Source of the DNA: Candidatus Hermodarchaeota archaeon
GTDB taxonomy: Archaea > Asgardarchaeota > Lokiarchaeia > Sigyniarchaeales > SOKP01
Length of the DNA: 19,876 bases
NCBI GenBank assembly: GCA_048885535.1
Contig: JBHLLO010000057.1
Coordinates: forward strand, 1 to 19,876
Reading direction: 5' to 3'
A program made the translations under genes and the position numbers. Positions 1,125-11,643 of the stretch are shown one piece after another (position 1 is the stretch's first letter; each line of letters begins with the position of its first letter). The notes under the pieces were generated by a model. It was not told the DNA's origin and searched no databases. It worked only from the letters and a program-made list of their open reading frames with translations.

Positions 1125-3530
1125 TTAACTTTTCTGTTTTAAATGGTTAAATAACCCCCCAACTAATTGACCTGTACTAATACCAGCATCTCCAGGGGGT
1201 ATAATATCATGCTCTAAGAAAATATAACCATTTTCATTTATATGTGTCTTAATAGAATTTGAAAAAGAATAATTATATGCCACTCCTCCGCTTAACCCAA
1301 TTTTATCTATATTATTTTTTGAAGCAACTTTCATAGCTATCTCTGCAAAAGTTTGTCCAAATCTTGTTTGAAAAGCAGCAGCAATATCAGCTTGACTATT
1401 TTTATGACTCTCCTTTAAGTTAATAATCTGCAGAATCAAATCGGAGGAATCAATAATAAAGACTCCATTTTTTTCAAAATATTTAATATCTAGATCAATA
1501 TTTTTCGAATTTCCGTTTATTGCTAAACCCTCTAACCTCATAGCAGGTTCTCCTCTATAGGTTTTTATCGTTGAAGCTCCTAAAATATAGGATACACAGT
1601 CAAATATTCTACCTGCTGAACTTGAAAGTGGTATATTTTGATCAGGATAATTTTTATTAGCACTTTTAAATTGAGATATAATTACTTCTAATTCTTTTTG
1701 TTGATATTCTAAATCGTTTTTAAGATTCAAAGTCTTAAAGGTTTTAATAGCATCTTCAACCTCTAGACTATTTAATATAATTGAGGCAAGCATTCTTCCA
1801 GGATACTTAGTACATCTGTCTCCTCCAATCATAGGCTGATATTGAAGATGACCTGCCCTTTTATAATCATTATAAGAACATATCAATATTTCACCCCCCC
1901 AAACATTACCATCATCCCCATAACCCACCCCATCAACACTTATTCCAACAATGCTTTCATTTTCCTTAACATTATTTTCAGCCATTAAGCTTAAAATATG
2001 AGCAAAATGATGTTGAATGCGATATAGTTGAACATTGAAGTATGATGCTAGCTCATTACCCAATTTTGTGGAAATAAATGCAGGGTGAGCATCACAGCTA
2101 ATAAAACTTATTTCAGAATCCTTAATTTTTAAGAGATTCTTCATATGGAAAATAGCATCTTTTAAGAATTCATAAGTTTCTAGGTGAGTAGTATTACCAA
2201 TATGTTGAGTGGGAAAAATTCGGTTTCCCCTTAATAAAGCACCAGTAGTGGTTAATTCAGGACCAGTTGAGATTGCTCCTTGAATATCTACTTTTATTGG
2301 AATTGGAATATATTCTGGTACATAACCTCTTGATCTTCTAATTAATTTAATTTTATCGTCATGTAATCTTAAAACACTATCATCTACTCGTTGAAAAATA
2401 GGGCGATTATGAAGTAAAAAGAAATCTGCTAGTTCATGAAGTTGATCGAATATCATTTCATTTTCAATTCCCATCGGTATATTCGATTTATTACCACTCG
2501 TATAAACTAATGGCTTTTCTCCTATATAATCAAATAACAAGTAATGAATACCCGTATAGGGTAACATTACACCAATATTACTTAAACCTGGAGCTACATA
2601 TTTACTTATTATAGAGTTTCTTATAGACTTTTTCCTTTCTAATAATAAAATTGGTCTTCTAAACGATTTTAACAACTGTTCCTCTTTTTCAGTTATTCGG
2701 AATTCATTTTTAATTAACTCTATATTTGGTACCATTATAGCAAATGGTTTGAATTTGCGATTACCCTTTCTGCTTCGCAGTTTTAAGACGGTATTATCAT
2801 CTTCAGCTAAACAGACCAAGTGAACTCCCCCTATACCTTGAACAGCTCCGATTTCACCTCGATTTATTCTTTTAGCAGTCTCCAATAATATTTCTTCAAT
2901 AGATTCATCATGGATTATATTTTTGTTTTTATCATAAAGTTTGTAATTAGGACCACAAACAGAACAGGCAAATGTTTGAGCATGAAATCGACGATTAGTA
3001 AAGGTATTATATTCTTTTGTACATGACTGAGGTTCAGCTTCTTCACAAAATGGAAAATTAATCATTGTAGTTCGCTCTCTATCATAAGGCAACGCTGTGA
3101 CTGTTGAAAATCTTGGTCCACATACTGCACATGCTATAAAAGGATAATTAAAGTATTTCTTTATATCAATATTTCTCATATCTCTTATACAATCTGTACA
3201 TGTTGCTATATCTGGTGGAAGTGCCAGGCTGATTCCACGACCATCTTCACTTTTTATTATCTCAAGTTTGTTATATTCAATTTTAGATTGAATTTGATTG
3301 GTAGTTAATTCCTCAATATAGGCTATTTTTGGTTTAGAGAGCTGAATCTTTTTTATAAATATCTCTATTTTTTCAGGGTTGCCTTGTACAACAAGTCGAA
3401 CTCCTGCATTTCCTCTATTTAAGATAAAACCATTTAAACCATAATATTTCGCCAAGTTAAACAAAAAGGGACGAAATCCAACGCCCATAATAATTCCCGT
3501 TATATTGATCTCTACAGTTTTCTGAGTCAT
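1125..3530 (-). CDS. hypF: Hydrogenase maturation carbamoyltransferase HypF
   Basis: Acylphosphatase domain (GIIMGVGFRPF), Zn fingers (CTDC, CAVCGPRF, CSVCGP), RFHAQT, YrdC-like domain, QHHFAH, DGVGYG, GGVAYN, PPGDAGISTGQ. Confidence 0.97.
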   Translation of the reverse strand: MTQKTVEINITGIIMGVGFRPFLFNLAKYYGLNGFILNRGNAGVRLVVQGNPEKIEIFIKKIQLSKPKIAYIEELTTNQIQSKIEYNKLEIIKSEDGRGISLALPPDIATCTDCIRDMRNIDIKKYFNYPFIACAVCGPRFSTVTALPYDRERTTMINFPFCEEAEPQSCTKEYNTFTNRRFHAQTFACSVCGPNYKLYDKNKNIIHDESIEEILLETAKRINRGEIGAVQGIGGVHLVCLAEDDNTVLKLRSRKGNRKFKPFAIMVPNIELIKNEFRITEKEEQLLKSFRRPILLLERKKSIRNSIISKYVAPGLSNIGVMLPYTGIHYLLFDYIGEKPLVYTSGNKSNIPMGIENEMIFDQLHELADFFLLHNRPIFQRVDDSVLRLHDDKIKLIRRSRGYVPEYIPIPIKVDIQGAISTGPELTTTGALLRGNRIFPTQHIGNTTHLETYEFLKDAIFHMKNLLKIKDSEISFISCDAHPAFISTKLGNELASYFNVQLYRIQHHFAHILSLMAENNVKENESIVGISVDGVGYGDDGNVWGGEILICSYNDYKRAGHLQYQPMIGGDRCTKYPGRMLASIILNSLEVEDAIKTFKTLNLKNDLEYQQKELEVIISQFKSANKNYPDQNIPLSSSAGRIFDCVSYILGASTIKTYRGEPAMRLEGLAINGNSKNIDLDIKYFEKNGVFIIDSSDLILQIINLKESHKNSQADIAAAFQTRFGQTFAEIAMKVASKNNIDKIGLSGGVAYNYSFSNSIKTHINENGYIFLEHDIIPPGDAGISTGQLVGGLFNHLKQKS

Positions 3531-3589
3531 CCAAGTAAATTAAACTCCAAAATTATATAAATAGTATTATTTCAGTTAAAAAGTGGAGT

Positions 3590-4684
3590 TTATTCTTGAT
3601 GGTATTTGTAAAATATGGTACACGTACCTTCATTAGAAACCATACAAGGTCCTATAGGATTAAGAGGAGTACATTCCTTTCTAAATAATTTACATTCGTT
3701 AGGAAGAAGTTTTCCAACCATGATTAAATGGCAAGAGCATCCAGGAGGAATATCTTGAGACTTTTCTATTTTTATATTGAACTTACGATCTGCATTATAT
3801 TTTTCAAATTTATCTCTAATTACTAATCCCCCATCAAGAACTCTTCCAATTCCACGCCAGGGAGACGAAACAGATTCAAATATTTCTTCAATAACTTTTT
3901 GAGCAACAAGATTTCCTTCCGGTTTAACAACCCGAGAATATTCATTCAATGTCTCATAGTTCTTTTCTTTGATTTGTTTTAAAAGCATTAGAATAGCTAA
4001 TAGAACATCAACTGGTTCGAATCCAGCAATAACATTAGGTACTTTGTATGCATCAGAGAAGATTTTAAAGGGTTTTAAACCAATAATCGTAGAAACATGC
4101 CCGGGAGATATAAAACCATCAATATTCAATCTAGATTGGCTTATCAGAAGTTCTAAGGCAGCAGGAATTAACTTATGAGCACAAATCACTGAGAAATTAG
4201 ATGGAGGATTAGCCTTTATTTCATATCCAGTTAAAGGAACTGTCGTTTCAAAACCTATTGCAAAAAAAATGACTTCTTTATTTGGATTATTTTTAGCTAT
4301 TTTAACTGCCTCACGTGGTCCATAGACAACACGTATATCAGCCCCTTTAGATTTCAATTCTGCTAAAGAAATGTTTGTTGCTGGGACTCTAAGCATATCT
4401 CCAAATGTGGCAATGATGACATCATTTCTTTTGCCTAATTCAACTGCTTTATCAATATCTGCTGCAGGGCAAACGCAAACAGGGCATCCAGGTCCTGATA
4501 CTACTTCAATTTCTTTTGGTAATAATGTCCTTAAACCATACTTAGAGATTGTATGCTCATGTGTCCCGCATACGTGCATTAGTTTAATAGGTCTATTTAA
4601 ATTATTACAAATTTTTGTGATAGAATTAATAATTCTCTCAGCAAATAATTTATCTTTTAGATATTTTGTTCCAGGAATTTCCAT
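3590..4684 (-). CDS. hypD: Hydrogenase formation protein HypD
   Basis: Motifs HVCGTH, GPGCPVC, GFETT, PGHVS and C-terminal Fe-S cysteines with GPCMVSNEGTC. Confidence 0.98.
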   Translation of the reverse strand: MEIPGTKYLKDKLFAERIINSITKICNNLNRPIKLMHVCGTHEHTISKYGLRTLLPKEIEVVSGPGCPVCVCPAADIDKAVELGKRNDVIIATFGDMLRVPATNISLAELKSKGADIRVVYGPREAVKIAKNNPNKEVIFFAIGFETTVPLTGYEIKANPPSNFSVICAHKLIPAALELLISQSRLNIDGFISPGHVSTIIGLKPFKIFSDAYKVPNVIAGFEPVDVLLAILMLLKQIKEKNYETLNEYSRVVKPEGNLVAQKVIEEIFESVSSPWRGIGRVLDGGLVIRDKFEKYNADRKFNIKIEKSQDIPPGCSCHLIMVGKLLPNECKLFRKECTPLNPIGPCMVSNEGTCTIFYKYHQE

Positions 4685-4719
4685 AATCTCTAATTTTAAT
4701 AATTTTATAAATAATTTAT

Positions 4720-5772
4720 TTAACAGATCCTTGGAATTGGTTCACCGAGAGCCATTTCTATGAATCTCGTGCCGCCTACTAAAGTTTTGAGTAAAACTTT
4801 TTTATTATTTTGAACTTTTACCTCCCCAATAATATTTGCGTCTTTTCCAATTTTTGTAGATTTTATTTTCTGAAGGATATTTTCTGCTTGATTTGGATCA
4901 ACAGACATTAAAGCTCTACCTTCAGAAGCAATAGTAAAAGGATCCAATCCAAGCATTTCACACACAGCAACTACTTGTTTTTTAATAGGAATCTCTTTTT
5001 CTTCTAATATAATGCCAACGTCGGATTTCATCGCCCAATCATTTAAAGCTGTAGCTATACCACCTCTAGTTGGGTCCTTCATTGCATGAATATAATTTTG
5101 ATTTATATCTGGTTTTAAAATGTTATAAATCTCTAGTAATGTTTCAACATCTGATTCCAAATCTGAAGATATATTTAAACCTTCCCGACTGGAGATTAAA
5201 GCTGTCCCGTGATCTCCTATTGAACCAGTAACGATTATTTTATCACCAGGTTGCAGATTATTATCTAAAATTCTAATATATTTGTCTTTAATTCCTATAC
5301 CCGTAATAGCCATAATTAATTCATTTAACGTACCACGAGGCATAACTTTAGTATCTCCTGCAATTATCGCAATATTTGCTTCTCTGGCTTTAAAGTTAAA
5401 AGAATTGATAATTTTTTCCAATAGATCAAATTTTAATCCTTCCTCTATTATAACTATAGAGGTAATTGCGATAGGTTCTGCACCCATCATTAATAAATCA
5501 TTAACAGTTCCACAAACGCTTAAGATTCCCAGATTTCCTCCAGGAAAAAACAAAGGCTCAACTGTATAACCATCTGCCGTAACTACGATTTCTTTATCGT
5601 AATCTTCCAGTGGAATCGTAGCTCCATCATCTAATTCTTCAACTCCTATCCCTTTATTAACATTTTTATAGGTAATGTTTTTAGTAATAAAGTTAATTAA
5701 TTCTTCTTGTAATAAACCACCAGATCCATGAGCAAGACGTATTATACTGGAGCTTACTTTCTTCATACTCAT
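4720..5772 (-). CDS. hypE: Hydrogenase maturation carbamoyl dehydratase HypE
   Basis: LAHGSGG, LFFPGG, GTVNDL, GDTKV, KDPTRGG and C-terminal PRIC. Start moved from TTG 5880 to ATG 5772 (or 5766) because the upstream extension is non-homologous AT-rich sequence. Confidence 0.96.
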   Translation of the reverse strand: MSMKKVSSSIIRLAHGSGGLLQEELINFITKNITYKNVNKGIGVEELDDGATIPLEDYDKEIVVTADGYTVEPLFFPGGNLGILSVCGTVNDLLMMGAEPIAITSIVIIEEGLKFDLLEKIINSFNFKAREANIAIIAGDTKVMPRGTLNELIMAITGIGIKDKYIRILDNNLQPGDKIIVTGSIGDHGTALISSREGLNISSDLESDVETLLEIYNILKPDINQNYIHAMKDPTRGGIATALNDWAMKSDVGIILEEKEIPIKKQVVAVCEMLGLDPFTIASEGRALMSVDPNQAENILQKIKSTKIGKDANIIGEVKVQNNKKVLLKTLVGGTRFIEMALGEPIPRIC

Positions 5773-5989
5773 GATTGAAAATAAGAAGCAAAAATTATAA
5801 GAATTTAGATTATCCAATATAATCTCAAATAAATGATAAAAATGTCGAAGAAAAACAATCTCTTTTATTTTACTTATCAAAAATTCCAGAAAATTTTTAT
5901 AAAATTTAATGATTACATAAACACAATTAGTTTAAATTAGCTAATTTAAAAAAAAATAAATTTATCAAACAATAAATAGGTAGAAAAAC
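5773..5989. promoter_or_regulatory. Divergent promoter region between hypEDF and the hydrogenase operon
   Basis: Very AT-rich intergenic region between head-to-head genes. Palindromic TTTTATAAAA at 5895-5904 could act as a TATA box in either direction; exact elements are not assignable by eye. Confidence 0.45.
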
Positions 5990-7340
5990 ATGGCAGTGAA
6001 AGTTGCTTTTATGCAATGCTCCGATATGGTAAAAATGTTCAATTTTTCCACGGAAGTGCTGGGGCTGCCACCAGAGCCTACTTAACGCACATTTAGGCTT
6101 ATTACCGGTACTCCCAGCATTGGATATTGTATATTGGCCAGCTGTAGTTGATTTCAAATATGACTCTTTGAAAGCAAGACCAGATGGAGATATTCTTGTA
6201 GGATTTGTTGAAGGAAGTTTAAGAACAAAAGAAGATGTAGAAAGCGCAAAATTAATGCGTGCCAAATGCAAGTTAATTATTGCCTTTGGTAGCTGTTCTT
6301 GTTATGGGAACGTTCATGGTTTAGCAAATGTATGGGACGTTCAAGAAGCTATAGATCGAAAGTTTAAACAAGCGGAATCAATAACTAATAGAGATACAGC
6401 AGGAGAACCTAAAAAACATACTCCTGGATTCGAAAGTAAAATTGTACCTTTAGACGAAGTTATAAAAGTGGATGCATATATAGGGGGCTGCCCACCAAAG
6501 CCGGAAGCTATCATCTCTGCGGTTCAATTTCTGCTTGGACAAAAGCCTCAACCAAAATCTGAAAGAACATTCTGCAATGATTGCATTTTACGAGAGAGTG
6601 GATGTTTATTAGAGAAAGGCACATTATGTTTTGGACCTATCACAAGTACTGGATGTTCATTAAAATGTACGAATGATGGTAAACCATGTGTTGGATGTTT
6701 TGGACCAAGTACTTCTGTAGACGGTAGAGCAAGTAGACTAAATGATATGCTTAGAAATATTGATAGCTTTAAATCAGGAGATAAAAAGAGTTTGTATGAA
6801 TTTTTAGCTCTTTTCTTGAATATACCATTGATGGCAGGCTTTGATTTAGCGGGAGATATATTAAAACAAGTTAAGAGGACTGGTTCACCTCAAACTCCTT
6901 TAGCTGAAATGCCTTCACAAACAACCGATATCGCTACAACTATTATGACATATCTTAGAGATCACCGAGAATTTTTAACTATCTCGAATGTCTGTGATAC
7001 TTGTGATCGTGTAATCGGAAGTGCGTCTAGAATGACAAGAGTCAAGAGAGATTATGAGGGCTTACCAAATATGACTGATTGTTTTATTGAACAAGGATAC
7101 CTCTGTGCGGGACCAATTACGAAAGCTGGCTGTGGTGGTTTATGTATACGGGTCAATGCTCCCTGCTCTGGCTGTTTTGGTCAGACAGAATGGAATGTTG
7201 ATCAAGCAGAGAGATTTGCTGAAGTAGCTACAAAAGGCTTCAATGTGGCTTTATCTAAGGAAGAACTTTTATTCCAAATTAAGGATAAGATTGGTTTTTC
7301 TGAGAAGTTCACATTAGCTGCTAATAAAAAATATAGGTAG
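5990..7340 (+). CDS. vhuG: F420-non-reducing [NiFe] hydrogenase small subunit (MvhG/VhuG), join(5990..6025,6057..7340), 439 aa after splicing
   Basis: The ORF track starts at 6120 and lacks the first CxxC. ATG 5990 gives MAVKVAFMQCSD, and the main frame from 6057 gives CWGCHQSLLNAHLGLLPVLPALDIVYWPAVVDFK. Also FVEGS, AFGSCSCYG, GGCPP and C-terminal Cys-rich domains. Confidence 0.93.
6026..6056 (+). other. 31-nt BHB (archaeal endonuclease-type) intron in vhuG mRNA
   Basis: Outer helix GC(6018-19)/GC(6058-59); central 4-bp helix UCCG(6020-23)/CGGA(6051-54); 3-nt bulges AUA(6024-26) and AGU(6055-57); inner helix UGG/CCA plus AAAAAU/AUUUUU. Cutting after the second bulge nucleotide on each strand joins GAT|TGC in frame. 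Confidence 0.9.
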
Positions 7341-7350
7341 GTGAAAAAAA

Positions 7351-8655
7351 ATGGTAAAAGAAATTGAAGTTGAGCCTGTCACTCGTTTAGAAGGACATGG
7401 CGGATTGAGGTTAGTAATAGGCGATGATGGCAAAGTTCAAGACGTGCAATTTAATATTACTTCTACAAGATTCTTTGAGAAATTTCTTGAAGGACGATAC
7501 TGCGAGCACATCCCTCGAATTACTCCAAGAATTTGCGGTATTTGCCCAATTCCCCATCATTTAACTCCTACTAAAGCTGTAGAAGATGCATGGGGTATAC
7601 AAATTCCAACACCTGCATATAAGTTACGTCAATTATTACAAAATGCAAAGCAGTATTCTTCTCATGCACTCCACTTCTATGCATTAGCAGCACCAGATTT
7701 CTTACTTGGACCTTTTGCAGATCCAGCATTAAGAAATGTTGTTCATGTAATCAGTAAGATGCCTGATGTCGGTGCGATGGCTCTAAAGATGATGGACTTC
7801 GGTCAGAAGCTATGCGCAGCTATTGGGGGTAAATCAGTACATCCTATTTCTGCCATAGTAGGTGGAATGAAGAAACCAATGGATGAAAGCGTACGTGATT
7901 TATTCTTAAAACAAATTGAAGATCAGGTAGAATGGACAAAAAAGACAGTCGATATAGGGTTAAAAGTAGTAGAAGATTATTGGGATGTCGTAGCCAACGT
8001 AGGAGTTGTGCCTACTTATTATGCTGGTATGACTAAAAATGGTGTTCATGATATTTATGATGGAGATCTCCGTATAGTCTCCCCTGAGGGACAGAAGTTT
8101 GACTATCCTCCTCAAAAATATCTAGAGGCTTTAGGTGAACATATTCCAGAACATTCTTATGCTACTCATATGTATTATAAGCCAGCAGGATACCCTGCAG
8201 GTATATATCGAGCTAATACATTAGCAATGATTAATTGTGCTGATAGAATGGCTACACCTTTAGCCGATGAAGCATTACAGGCAATGAGAGCAAAAGTTGG
8301 ACAAGTATCTCATCATACATTTGCATATCACTGGGCTCGATTAATTGAATTAGTAGAATCGATTGAAATAATTGCTACATTATTACAAGACGATGATATA
8401 GTTAATCCTAATTGTAAAACATTTGATGTCCAACCAAGAGAAGGAGATGGAGTTGGTCTTACTGAAGCTCCTAGAGGAATACTCTTGTATCATATATGGT
8501 CTGATGGTGAAGGCATATGCAAAAAGGCAAATCTCTTAGTAGCTACGAATCATAATATTGCGGGTATTGAGAAAACATTAATGCATGTAGCCAAACAAGT
8601 GTTCGAACAAAATGCTTTATCCGGATTAAAATTACCAGACCCTTGGATTAAATAA
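7351..8655 (+). CDS. vhuA: [NiFe] hydrogenase large subunit (MvhA/VhuA), split form lacking the C-terminal L2 motif
   Basis: EPVTRLEGHG, L1 motif RICGICPIPH, GGKSVHP, EAPRGILLYH, ANLLVATNHN. No DPCxxCxxH at the C-terminus; that part is encoded by the next gene. SD AGGTGA upstream. Confidence 0.95.
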   Translation: MVKEIEVEPVTRLEGHGGLRLVIGDDGKVQDVQFNITSTRFFEKFLEGRYCEHIPRITPRICGICPIPHHLTPTKAVEDAWGIQIPTPAYKLRQLLQNAKQYSSHALHFYALAAPDFLLGPFADPALRNVVHVISKMPDVGAMALKMMDFGQKLCAAIGGKSVHPISAIVGGMKKPMDESVRDLFLKQIEDQVEWTKKTVDIGLKVVEDYWDVVANVGVVPTYYAGMTKNGVHDIYDGDLRIVSPEGQKFDYPPQKYLEALGEHIPEHSYATHMYYKPAGYPAGIYRANTLAMINCADRMATPLADEALQAMRAKVGQVSHHTFAYHWARLIELVESIEIIATLLQDDDIVNPNCKTFDVQPREGDGVGLTEAPRGILLYHIWSDGEGICKKANLLVATNHNIAGIEKTLMHVAKQVFEQNALSGLKLPDPWIK

Positions 8656-8675
8656 AAAGGAGGAGTATAAATAAG

Positions 8676-8859
8676 ATGAGTGAAGATGTACCAGAAGGAG
8701 TAGTAAATCTTCTTGAAATGATAGTCAGATGCTTTGACTCTTTGGTTAATTCAACCAAGTGGAGTATACTGCTGACTATCCTGCGCCGCTCATATAACGG
8801 TCGTGAAAGAGAATGGCGAGGAGGTTTATTCTCGAAAGTTGAATGTTGGCCTTGGATGA
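8676..8859 (+). CDS. vhuU: Selenocysteine-containing hydrogenase peptide VhuU, join(8676..8736,8768..8859), 50 aa: MSEDVPEGVVNLLEMIVRCFDCULSCAAHITVVKENGEEVYSRKLNVGLG
   Basis: SD AGGAGG. Exon 1 gives NLLEMIVRCFD (cf. NxxEMxxRAYDP). The +1 frame gives TGC TGA CTA TCC TGC GCC GCT CAT (C-U-L-S-C-A-A-H), the L2 Ni-binding motif, then a cleavable tail and TGA 8857-59. Confidence 0.88.
8737..8767 (+). other. 31-nt relaxed BHB intron in vhuU mRNA
   Basis: Central helix GCUU(8731-34)/GAGU(8762-65) with two G-U pairs; bulges UGA(8735-37) and AUA(8766-68); inner hairpin UUGGUU/AACCAA; exon-exon helix AUAGUCAG(8721-28)/CUGACUAU(8772-79). Pairs flanking the bulges are imperfect. The boundary can slide up to 3 nt (ACT repeat) with an identical spliced product. 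Confidence 0.8.
8773..8775 (+). other. In-frame UGA read as selenocysteine in vhuU
   Basis: Falls at the first Cys position of the L2 motif (UxxCxxH), as in methanococcal VhuU, and has a SECIS about 80 nt downstream. Confidence 0.88.
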
Positions 8860-8917
8860 ATATCCAATATAAATAATAGATTGGATATGACTACCCACGC
8901 AAGGGTTAAAGCCAGCA
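8844..8917 (+). promoter_or_regulatory. Eukaryote-type SECIS element
   Basis: AUGA(8856-59)...GA(8889-90) core; 9-bp helix AUAUCCAAU(8860-68)/AUUGGAUAU(8880-88); A-rich apical loop (AAUAA 8872-76). Possible lower helices UGG/CCA, CCU/AGG and UGUUGGC(8844-50)/GCCAGCA(8911-17). Confidence 0.85.
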
Positions 8918-8971
8918 AATAAATGAAATGAATAAAAAAGTTTTAAAAGTTAACGGAAAACGTGAAAAAAA

Positions 8972-9490
8972 ATGTCGATTGATTTCGAATTTAGAAAACA
9001 AATTATGGATTTTCATATAGGGTCTGATCTAATTAAATATTGCTACCAATGTAGTCGATGCGCTGATAATTGTCCAGTCACAAACGTAACTACAGATTTT
9101 TATACGACTACAGGATATAATCCACGTAGTAACATCCTAAATGCTCTATTGGGATATAAGGATGCTATCTTTTCAGCAGATCCCTTAACAATTTGGGGAT
9201 GTACAGTTTGCGACACATGTGACGAGGTTTGTCCTCAAAAAATCGAGCTTACTGAAATATTTACTTTCTTGAAAAATAAATCAACAGAACAAGGTAATGC
9301 TCCCGATTTTATCTATTCTCAAGCAAAAACAATATTCGATAATGCTAAAGCAATTCCTCCACAACCTGCAATTGAAAGGCGAAGGGATCAATTAGGGTTA
9401 CCGACAATAATGACACCAGATATCAGTGAACTTCAAACATTATTAAGAAATATTGGAGCTAATAAAAAGATCATAGAAAAAGAGGGATAA
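8972..9490 (+). CDS. hdrC: Heterodisulfide reductase subunit C
   Basis: Two [4Fe-4S] motifs, CYQCSRCADNCP and CTVCDTCDEVCP; directly upstream of hdrB. Confidence 0.93.
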   Translation: MSIDFEFRKQIMDFHIGSDLIKYCYQCSRCADNCPVTNVTTDFYTTTGYNPRSNILNALLGYKDAIFSADPLTIWGCTVCDTCDEVCPQKIELTEIFTFLKNKSTEQGNAPDFIYSQAKTIFDNAKAIPPQPAIERRRDQLGLPTIMTPDISELQTLLRNIGANKKIIEKEG

Positions 9491-9494
9491 AGCA

Positions 9495-10352
9495 ATGACA
9501 GAATATAAAATGTTTGAAGGTTGTACAATAGGGAATCGTATTCCTTTTATAGAAGCTGCTTCAAGGAAAGTATTTGAGAAAGTAGGGATTGAAACATCAG
9601 AAGCTCCGTTTAGCTGTTGTCCTGATCCCACAGGAATGAAGAGTTTTGATAATGATGCATGGTTAGTAATTGGAGCTCGGAACCTTAGTCTAGCTGAAGC
9701 TGAAGGAAAAAATATCATATCGCTTTGTAATGGATGTGCTAATACTCTCAGAGGAGTGCAGCACCAATTAAAACACGATTCCTTAAAGAAAGAAAAAGTA
9801 AATCAACAACTAGCAAAAATCGGTAAACAATTCAACGGAAGTATAGAAGTAAAGCATTTTGTGGATGTCTTGCTGGAGAATCTTGATAGAATAAAAGGAG
9901 CAATTACTAAACCATTAAGCGGGTTAAAGGTTGCTGTTCACCCAGGTTGTCATTATATGAGACCAGCAGAATGGATGGAAAATGATGATCCACTAAGACC
10001 TCAAAATTTAAAGAAACTGGTTGCAGCTTCTGGAGCTACTGTTGTGGACTATGAAAGTTTAGCTTTATGTTGTGGATCAGCAGTTACTAATGCTTATGAA
10101 GAACATGGGTTAGCAAATCTAAAAATCAAATTAGATGATATCAAAAAAGCTGGAGTGGATGTAATTTGTGTAAACTGTCCCTCATGTTTTCAGCAATTTG
10201 ATACCCGTCAAAAAGATTTAGGCAAAAAATATGAGACGGAATATGACATTCCTGTTTTATATGTGACAGAATTATTAGCACTGGCTATGGGGATTAGTCC
10301 GGAAGATATAGGGCTAAAATTTCATAGAACGCGATTGAAGACCCAAATATAA
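9495..10352 (+). CDS. hdrB: Heterodisulfide reductase subunit B
   Basis: Two CCG domains: GC..CCPDP..CNGC and PGCH..CCGS..CPSC, with ARNL and IPVLYVTELLALAMG. Confidence 0.95.
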   Translation: MTEYKMFEGCTIGNRIPFIEAASRKVFEKVGIETSEAPFSCCPDPTGMKSFDNDAWLVIGARNLSLAEAEGKNIISLCNGCANTLRGVQHQLKHDSLKKEKVNQQLAKIGKQFNGSIEVKHFVDVLLENLDRIKGAITKPLSGLKVAVHPGCHYMRPAEWMENDDPLRPQNLKKLVAASGATVVDYESLALCCGSAVTNAYEEHGLANLKIKLDDIKKAGVDVICVNCPSCFQQFDTRQKDLGKKYETEYDIPVLYVTELLALAMGISPEDIGLKFHRTRLKTQI

Positions 10353-11394: not shown

Positions 11395-11643
11395 ATGTGC
11401 TTAGCCATTCCCGGAAAAATTATAAAGTTCAATGATGATGGAACCACAGCTCAAGTTGATTTTGATGGAATTATACAAAGTGTGGTTATAGCCCTAATTT
11501 CAGAACCAAAAATTGGAAATTATGTTATTGTACATGCAGGATATGCTATTGAGCAAATGAATGAAAAAGAAGCATTAGAAGCGATTGAGCAGTGGAAAGA
11601 AATTGCTGAAGACCAGGATTTAAATCTCTCTGACATGTTATAG
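11395..11643 (+). CDS. hypC: Hydrogenase assembly chaperone HypC
   Basis: MCLAIPG N-terminus and YVIVHAGYAI. Confidence 0.97.
   Translation: MCLAIPGKIIKFNDDGTTAQVDFDGIIQSVVIALISEPKIGNYVIVHAGYAIEQMNEKEALEAIEQWKEIAEDQDLNLSDML

Follow-up and report, generated by a model that had tools for sequence, protein, structure and literature searches.

Candidate tRNA-type introns in the vhuG and vhuU genes of an Asgard archaeal [NiFeSe] hydrogenase operon

How can an archaeon make a hydrogenase when two genes of its operon are each interrupted by a short insert that breaks the reading frame? The question is raised by a [NiFeSe] hydrogenase operon, which we take to be of group 3c (F420-non-reducing, Vhu/Mvh), on a contig of 19,876 nt (JBHLLO010000057.1, here the window) assigned to a Candidatus Hermodarchaeota archaeon (GCA_048885535.1). 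The window is contig C57 of a metagenome-assembled genome, G000, of 3.09 Mb in 112 contigs with 32% G+C; other G numbers denote genomes of the same order (154 examined), L numbers homologous loci or contigs, and X numbers sequencing runs. An earlier note on this DNA had proposed that vhuG (small subunit) and vhuU (the peptide carrying the Ni ligands) each carry a frameshifting insert of 31 nt that would be removed by splicing of the tRNA type, in a likely Asgard host. Both inserts were found where it had placed them, at 6026-6056 and 8737-8767, and the Asgard assignment was borne out, the nearest public records being metagenome-assembled genomes of Promethearchaeota/Promethearchaeia (Lokiarchaeota-type). 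We consider it likely that both inserts are introns of the bulge-helix-bulge (BHB) type known from tRNAs, lying here in protein-coding hydrogenase genes and spliced by an alpha/beta EndA endonuclease together with the ligase RtcB. For the vhuG insert taken by itself, removal by splicing as a BHB intron appears very probable.

Read without splicing from its ATG at 5990, vhuG runs into a stop after 31 codons. Without the insert it forms a frame of 439 codons, in which the 12-codon exon 1 leads directly into the CWGC cluster motif. The exon 2 product aligns from its first residue onward with residue 12 of the solved MvhG chain 5odc_E, so that the homologous MvhG likewise has about 11 residues ahead of its CxxC. 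In the exon 2 frame of G000, no ATG, GTG or TTG occurs between the insert and the CxxC; the first is a TTG at 6120, beyond the ligands. By the cut rule for BHB motifs, exon 1 ends in the four-base strand H of the central helix plus two bulge bases, and the intron consists of one bulge base, a hairpin, the four-base strand H' and two further bulge bases. We checked this rule on the tRNAs of G000, where the anticodon-loop introns of Thr-UGU, Leu-UAA (32 nt), Cys (20 nt) and Gly-GCC (31 nt) fit, with 4/4 central pairs and a flanking helix of 6-7 pairs. The vhuG insert follows the same geometry: its central helix is UCCG/CGGA, with AUA and AGU as bulges and an outer helix of 2 bp to close the motif (positions in Table 1). 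In RNAfold predictions, the full motif (hBHBh', with h and h' the outer and inner helices) was the minimum free energy (MFE) structure in G029, G019, G021 and G023, and lay near it in G000, with the 3' side slightly shifted.

The position of this insert, hereafter site 1, is occupied in seven distinct alleles that align without gaps (G000, G029, G019, G021, G023 and the metagenome contigs L038 and L039). In this alignment 94.3% of the cells expected to pair do so, and 8 of the 15 pairs have changed on both sides. None of 500 column shuffles equalled the observed pairing and compensation, and sliding the partners by 1-3 columns left 31-55% paired. RNAalifold, run de novo, returned the same hBHBh' structure. 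The central helix itself covaries, appearing as UCCG/CGGA, UCUG/CAGA and UCUG/CGGA, and is complete (4/4) in six of the seven alleles. Helix covariation across orthologous loci, which the earlier note had named as one way to check its proposal, is thus present at this site. The coding sequence around the insert is conserved as protein: the ratio of nonsynonymous to synonymous substitution rates (dN/dS) between insert-bearing alleles was 0.10-0.12 at dS values of 0.34-0.92, and 0.104 for an insert-less pair. All insert-bearing alleles compared keep 427 open codons 3' of the insert, with zero stops. Exon 1 differs between G000 and G021 by one synonymous base, and the insert differs at many positions. 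This purifying selection also speaks against vhuG being a pseudogene; decay of the operon was an outcome that the earlier note had held would refute it. Since vhuG has long been kept by selection, its protein must be made, and the insert must therefore leave the message.

Relatives show the joined form as DNA. The site-1 insert was present in 5 of the 154 genomes, all of one genus, and in three metagenome contigs. The N-terminus was readable in 29 of 30 loci (G000 and 28 congeners), 22 of which are insert-less and read GAY|TGY TGG exactly at the predicted junction. Intron-less alleles with the exact predicted junction, which the earlier note had named as a check, exist for both genes. One such locus, L048, lies inside the insert-bearing clade of a quick vhuG tree and may reflect either precise loss or later gain. 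That tree kept 81 of 84 rows (L038, L039 and L122, with matches below 300 residues, were dropped) and is read for neighbourhoods, not for counts of gains. Covariation, purifying selection and precise insert-less alleles together make up the strongest evidence that sequence alone can offer.

Site 1 is not the only interrupted position in vhuG. Further inserts of 28-32 nt occur at three other positions, all within the first ~75 nt of the gene, and every insert either breaks the frame or carries an in-frame stop. Site 2 follows the first base of a His codon, 12 codons past site 1, and is occupied in 4 of the 154 genomes; its alleles include one of 29 nt in G023 (H AUGC/GCAU) and one of 28 nt in G089, from another genus (AUGC/GUAU). 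In the distant clade of L086, a 32-nt insert lies 2 nt upstream of site 1, with a perfect central helix (ACUC/GAGU) and an inner helix h' of 8 bp, and is lacking from the sister locus L083. Finally, L112 has a frameshifting 31-nt insert before its CWGC, ~67 nt past the vhuG ATG, and its sister L111 is without it. Across the 13 insert alleles tabulated (L112 excluded), the central helix has 4/4 pairs in ten, 3/4 in two and 2/4 in one.

G023 stands out in having two introns in a single vhuG (L006 / L119), one of 31 nt and one of 29 nt; the 36-nt exon between them encodes only the CWGCHQSLLNAH segment.

Among 80 vhuG loci on genome contigs, 62 were regular, 8 showed harmless N-terminal variants, 8 had an insert and 2 lacked the search motif. 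The rest of the gene is uninterrupted: with exon 2 as tblastn query, 83 of 84 loci gave a single colinear match and no insert, the exception (L122) being a truncated main match with a short overlapping secondary match at a contig end, not an insert. For vhuA, all 76 loci gave a single colinear match, again without an insert. All the interruptions therefore sit in ~75 bases out of about 2,600 that code for the two subunits. Across the family, introns would favour the 5' end of vhuG, either through repeated gain or because old ones were precisely lost many times; the insert sequences are too short and fast-evolving to reveal homology. The interruption falls within G^AY TGC TGR in vhuU as well as in the vhuG of L086, and two bases further on at site 1. 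This shared context hints at a preferred insertion target, in a sample of three.

In vhuU, removal of 8737-8767 places an Asp directly before Cys-Sec-Leu-Ser-Cys..His (..CFD / C-U-LSC..H), where Sec is selenocysteine, encoded by the TGA at 8773-8775, and the frame then runs to its stop at 8857-8859. The same contiguous arrangement of the Sec motif was found in 25 of 25 congeners read and in 62 of 80 loci, the other 18 being too short or unmatched. Removing the inserts thus restores the frame and the ligand motif (Cys in vhuG, Sec-Cys in vhuU) in both genes, as the earlier note had maintained, and with the frame disrupted in each, neither subunit could be made from the unspliced message. The vhuU insert has the same 1+24+4+2 layout as the vhuG intron. 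Its central helix, GCUU/GAGU, has 4/4 pairs at the only placement of the boundaries to restore the motif, as a check of the offsets by hand showed, and its 5' bulge is clean. Despite many synonymous changes, exon 2 and the G029 allele are alike in all but one residue, and the hairpin resembling a selenocysteine insertion sequence (SECIS) behind it is intact. The vhuU insert is less certain than that of vhuG because only a relaxed motif fits; it is somewhat more probable than not that it, too, is spliced, as a relaxed substrate of the bulge-helix-loop kind. Two-subunit EndA types are described, in the available part of one source (PMC5829648), as cleaving relaxed or non-canonical introns.

In many insert-less relatives (L002-L026), Ile-Val-Arg codons can pair with the codons flanking the Sec UGA (..AGUCAG../..CUGACU..), with the UGA in the 3' strand. 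This hairpin is not kept everywhere (for example in L008 and L011) and may be due to chance; the G000 insert went into its loop.

The enzymes that such splicing would need are encoded by the host. The two EndA paralogues of G000 are 200 and 205 aa long, share 34% identity over 89 aa, and match PF01974 with 99.7 and 70.2 bits as well as TIGR00324. Their genes lie in the regions of C6:30393-30617 and C1:55964-56212. One corresponds to the C-terminal (catalytic) half and the other to the N-terminal half of two-unit EndA models, and on this ground the G000 enzyme is classed as the alpha/beta heteromeric type. RtcB was found at 560.9 bits, at C2:49044-50351. Yoshinari et al. are said to have linked the alpha/beta arrangement to splicing of cbf5, the crenarchaeal mRNA discussed below; the cbf5 of G000 is uninterrupted, TIGR00425 positions 5-319 being matched without stops. 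ARAGORN predicted introns in 23 of 34 tRNA genes of G000, many at non-canonical positions.

We infer that cleavage and ligation take place in vivo, along the following lines. The operon would be transcribed with its inserts retained, and the last six bases of exon 1 would combine with the last six of the intron into a 4-bp helix between 3-nt bulges. The alpha/beta EndA would cut after the second bulge base on both sides, and RtcB would ligate the exons, freeing a 31-nt intron that is probably circular. Only after joining would the mRNA encode a VhuG whose N-terminal strand continues into the CxxC cluster ligands and a VhuU that includes the Sec/Cys ligands of the Ni.

A number of findings tell against this reading, and have to be set beside it. 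Some alleles depart from the motif: L039 retains 2/4 central pairs at site 1; the site-2 inserts of G007 and G033, 30 nt long with an in-frame TAA, have 3/4; and the L112 insert gives no clean BHB at any pair of boundaries (3/4 central pairs at best), which could point to a degenerate intron or to a pseudogene. We also scanned G000 for frame-joining BHB motifs, another check that the earlier note had named, and saw neither an excess over decoys nor a sign of a wider splicing regulon. With an exon 1 of >= 40 codons and a hairpin of <= -3 kcal/mol we obtained 31 candidates, the four mis-registered decoys giving 25-36; a short exon 1 gave 20 against 18-27, and an added outer helix 9 against 6-10 and 5 against 4-6. 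The decoys have a shifted 3' cut, and their noise floor could hide a few real mRNA introns. Further mRNA introns in G000 can therefore not be claimed, and the hydrogenase cases would stand isolated in this genome. In X14, the sole RNA run, two contigs ~90% identical to the window skip 6026-6056, and one skips 8738-8769 with a single T between (5 differences in 225 nt, ~98% identical), which at the junction has a T where the expected product has C (8769). Moreover, the DNA run X1 also holds a contig that skips 6026-6056, and several DNA runs end in an insert-less vhuU, so that the joined forms stand as DNA in relatives. The joined X14 contigs come from relatives of unseen DNA state and are ambiguous: they are compatible with splicing and prove nothing. 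Stretches left uncovered by X14 and X5 carry no meaning.

The remaining points against the reading concern vhuU, and they feed an alternative in which the vhuG intron is spliced while the vhuU insert is a recent, disabling hairpin mini-insert, leaving vhuU and the hydrogenase non-functional in this strain. Only G000 was found to have the vhuU insert: a pattern search picked it up in 1 of 154 genomes, and it was absent from the 25 congeners and 62 loci that could be read. With this single allele, the covariation evidence is confined to vhuG. Two of the four central pairs of the vhuU insert are G.U, and its outer-helix strands are not in register (h contiguous 0, h' contiguous 1). The earlier note had given both inserts a 4-bp central helix with two 3-nt bulges; this held for vhuG, but in vhuU the 3' bulge lies opposite two unpaired bases, forming a 2x3 internal loop. 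The vhuU MFE structure is a different fold altogether, in which the insert pairs with itself as a self-contained hairpin inside a 9-bp helix between the exons. The ~98%-identical joined X14 contig could, on this alternative, stem from an insert-less sister strain. Against it stand the layout shared with vhuG and the complete central helix at the motif-restoring offset, a fit that a random hairpin insert would achieve by chance in a few percent of cases by our rough estimate. The intact vhuA, SECIS-like hairpin and remaining operon also argue for a working hydrogenase, as does the relaxed specificity described for two-subunit EndA. We regard a disabling vhuU insert as rather unlikely.

A second alternative keeps the inserts in the RNA and has the ribosome pass them by hopping, as in T4 gene 60, by frameshifting or by starting downstream. 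Both inserts are short, near the 5' end and hairpin-forming, as bypass elements are, but matching take-off and landing codons are absent at both, and in-frame stops occur in the G023 site-1 insert and in the 30-nt site-2 inserts. The peptides that the inserts would encode are not conserved, whereas their base pairs are, and the BHB model, unlike bypass, predicts a covarying helix between exon 1 and the insert's 3' end. A downstream start is countered by the lack of a start codon ahead of the CxxC noted above. This alternative is very improbable. That the inserts are an assembly or binning artefact, foreign to the organism's DNA, is hardly credible: although the 112 contigs of which the window is one were assembled from a metagenome and X1 may be the same sample, a 698-nt X1 contig from an independent assembler spans 8678-9000, including the vhuU insert, with 0 differences, contigs from X5 (96% identical) and X6 (90%), from other studies, run gapless through the vhuG insert and differ from the window at 6037-6038 in its hairpin loop, and the site-1 inserts of five genomes and three metagenome contigs differ by compensatory changes.

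If both inserts are BHB introns, does their splicing regulate anything? The earlier note had suggested that EndA/RtcB could act as a post-transcriptional switch on H2 metabolism, an idea that none of our results supports. Splicing is most likely constitutive, and evidence for gating was not seen. The data fit just as well constitutively spliced, nearly neutral introns that are tolerated near 5' ends, and the 5' bias may as well reflect tolerance of introns only at places from which the unspliced message gives a short, harmless peptide. A bolder reading would have tRNA-type introns repeatedly colonising the first ~75 nt of vhuG (and, in G000, the vhuU gene for the Sec peptide, beside its UGA codon), favoured at GAY-TGC-TGR, with EndA/RtcB activity setting the amount of active hydrogenase and so gating H2 metabolism after transcription; splicing and translation initiation would compete, since the BHB would be melted by any ribosome sitting on exon 1. 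We consider this distinctly unlikely. Promethearchaeia are the closest prokaryotic relatives of eukaryotes, and the gating reading, if true, would offer a living example of introns invading coding genes before a nucleus parts splicing from translation.

The features of the locus are collected in Table 1. The operon has the marks of a [NiFeSe] Vhu/Mvh hydrogenase: a small subunit with an N-terminal CxxC, a large subunit split into VhuA and a Sec-bearing VhuU, a SECIS-like hairpin, and Hdr and Hyp neighbours. The structures matched for the operon type were MvhG/Vhu 5odc, 9sfi and 9sw2. The shape of the hairpin agrees with the published description of Lokiarchaeota SECIS elements by Mariotti et al. 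(PMC4989117), in the part of that text available. In the window between 5800 and 9100, Rfam gave no family at E <= 1, the SECIS-like hairpin included.

Table 1. Coordinates of the interrupted hydrogenase genes, their inserts and the neighbouring features in the window.
Feature	Position	Strand	Basis
hypF, hypD, hypE maturation genes, divergent from vhuG	1125..5880	-	Pfam
vhuG exon 1, ATG + 11 codons, first beta-strand ahead of CxxC	5990..6025	+	
vhuG full hBHBh' motif: h 6018-6019/6058-6059; H 6020-6023/6051-6054; bulges 6024-6026 and 6055-6057	6018..6059	+	RNAalifold consensus, pair counts
vhuG 31-nt probable BHB intron, site 1: third bulge base A, 24-nt hairpin 6027-6050, H' CGGA 6051-6054, AG 6055-6056	6026..6056	+	
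vhuG exon 2, 427 codons + stop, [NiFe] hydrogenase small subunit, Mvh/Vhu type	6057..7340	+	Pfam Oxidored_q6 2.4e-23; 5odc_E MvhG 3.4e-53
vhuA, large subunit without the C-terminal ligand peptide, unbroken	7351..8655	+	Pfam NiFeSe_Hases; colinear tblastn
vhuU exon 1, 20 codons + first base of Asp codon	8676..8736	+	
9-bp exon-exon helix, 8720-8728/8772-8780, enclosing the vhuU insert and including the Sec codon	8720..8780	+	MFE -22.3 kcal/mol, z -3.08
vhuU 31-nt insert, candidate relaxed BHB (bulge-helix-loop): third bulge base A, hairpin 8738-8761, H' GAGU 8762-8765, AU 8766-8767; H GCUU 8731-8734	8737..8767	+	
vhuU exon 2: Sec TGA 8773-8775, Cys + His of Ni-ligand motif, stop TGA 8857-8859	8768..8859	+	
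SECIS-like hairpin, Lokiarchaeota type, 9-bp stem, 11-nt apical loop, directly 3' of vhuU stop	8860..8888	+	Fold
hdrC-like gene	8972..9490	+	Pfam Fer4 families
hdrB-like gene	9495..10352	+	Pfam CCG / HdrB-like_C
hypC	11395..11643	+	Pfam

The scan and the searches for relatives left some observations of a different kind. No further copy of either insert was found in the G000 genome; a 17-nt identity to the vhuU insert at C44:16763-16779 was put down to chance, as it lies inside an unbroken open reading frame on the opposite strand. The best extra scan candidate, C20:26811-26851 (41 nt, h of 8 bp, -9.0 kcal/mol), was rejected because its homologues need no exon 1. Their family (G000 C20:26854, equivalent to L126:355, with L128-L130 and L132-L134) resembles the alkaline phosphatase superfamily, begins with ..IIGIDGG and has no in-frame upstream ATG, GTG or TTG. 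In the seven homologues with a matched N-terminus, the codon ahead of this conserved stretch is ATA or ATT, and a Shine-Dalgarno-like GGTGA/GAGG site lies a few bases upstream of that codon; an eighth locus, L131, was a partial match without upstream sequence. Judged from these sequences, the ATA/ATT codons look like non-canonical start codons, and the orthologues have a conserved A/T-rich upstream block in common. At C13:49574-50091, two scan matches fall on the junctions of three successive long frames with TGA-rich boundaries, which, rather than introns, may mark an hdrA-vhuD-like pair of selenoproteins with TGA in frame. Eight loci (L047, L053, L068, L073, L082, L101, L102 and L104) have a vhuG that nests among Promethearchaeota under records labelled Odinarchaeota, Hodarchaeota, Thorarchaeota or even Nanopelagicaceae bacterium; these discordant names are probably labelling or binning inconsistencies.

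tRNA-type introns are very rare in archaeal protein genes. The literature searched, so far as its text was available, gave two cases in archaeal mRNAs, crenarchaeal cbf5 (PMC2738675) and the leader of Haloferax HVO_1309 (PMC7714728). The earlier note knew of no BHB introns in hydrogenase mRNAs, and we likewise found none reported in the full-text literature, a coverage that leaves out most subscription journals and supplementary gene tables. The available parts of two sources describe Asgard archaea as rich in tRNA introns (PMC11291895; bioRxiv 10.64898/2026.10.13.758758), and those of two others treat Asgard VhuU as an ordinary selenoprotein of ~50 aa (PMC4989117, PMC11227280). Taken at face value, the tRNA-splicing machinery appears to be required for expressing a core enzyme of energy metabolism in an Asgard archaeon. 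There is a practical side as well, since gene callers truncate or split such genes: here vhuG was called from an internal TTG and vhuU as a 66-aa non-selenoprotein, and miscalled genes of this kind can bias censuses of hydrogenases and selenoproteomes in Asgard genomes. The presence/absence polymorphism among close relatives amounts to a natural experiment on the gain and loss of BHB introns in coding DNA. The way they crowd at the 5' end touches on the question of how a gene can hold introns while its transcription and translation are coupled, which is relevant to ideas on the origin of the nucleus.

How, then, do these inserts compare with known systems? In eukaryotes, the unconventional splicing of HAC1/XBP1 uses Ire1 plus RtcB/Trl1. 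The likeness, drawn as an analogy only, lies in the non-spliceosomal excision of a short, frame-changing mRNA intron by an endonuclease and a ligase; the nuclease there is the stress-activated Ire1, and the hydrogenase case is likened to it from gene sequence alone. A link between RtcB and XBP1 is mentioned in the available part of PMC8718801. In the Haloferax volcanii HVO_1309 transcript (Schwarz 2020, PMC7714728), according to the text available, EndA likewise acts on an mRNA close to its 5' end, and removal of the intron seems important for efficient expression. Unlike the hydrogenase inserts, that intron sits in an untranslated leader and leaves the frame intact, and it has been verified in vivo and in vitro.

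The crenarchaeal cbf5 intron (Watanabe 2002; Yokobori 2009, PMC2738675), as described in the text available, also is a short BHB-type intron within a coding frame, with lineage-specific presence and loss, a host with a hetero-oligomeric endonuclease, and a locus that gene callers misread as a frameshift. Its splicing was proven by experiment, while the hydrogenase inserts are known from sequence. The present case differs from cbf5 in its phylum, the Asgard archaea, in its genes, a hydrogenase small subunit and a Sec-bearing VhuU, and in having two introns per operon, up to two per gene (G023), and three or more insertion positions in the first ~75 nt after the start codon. A further comparison is with the archaeal tRNA introns, which have the same motif geometry and size range, those of G000 itself included, and for which repeated gains at BHB-competent sites are reported in the available part of a recent preprint (bioRxiv 10.64898/2026.10.13.758758). 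Unlike these, the inserts described here have an mRNA as host RNA, so that their splicing would compete with translation and decide the reading frame.

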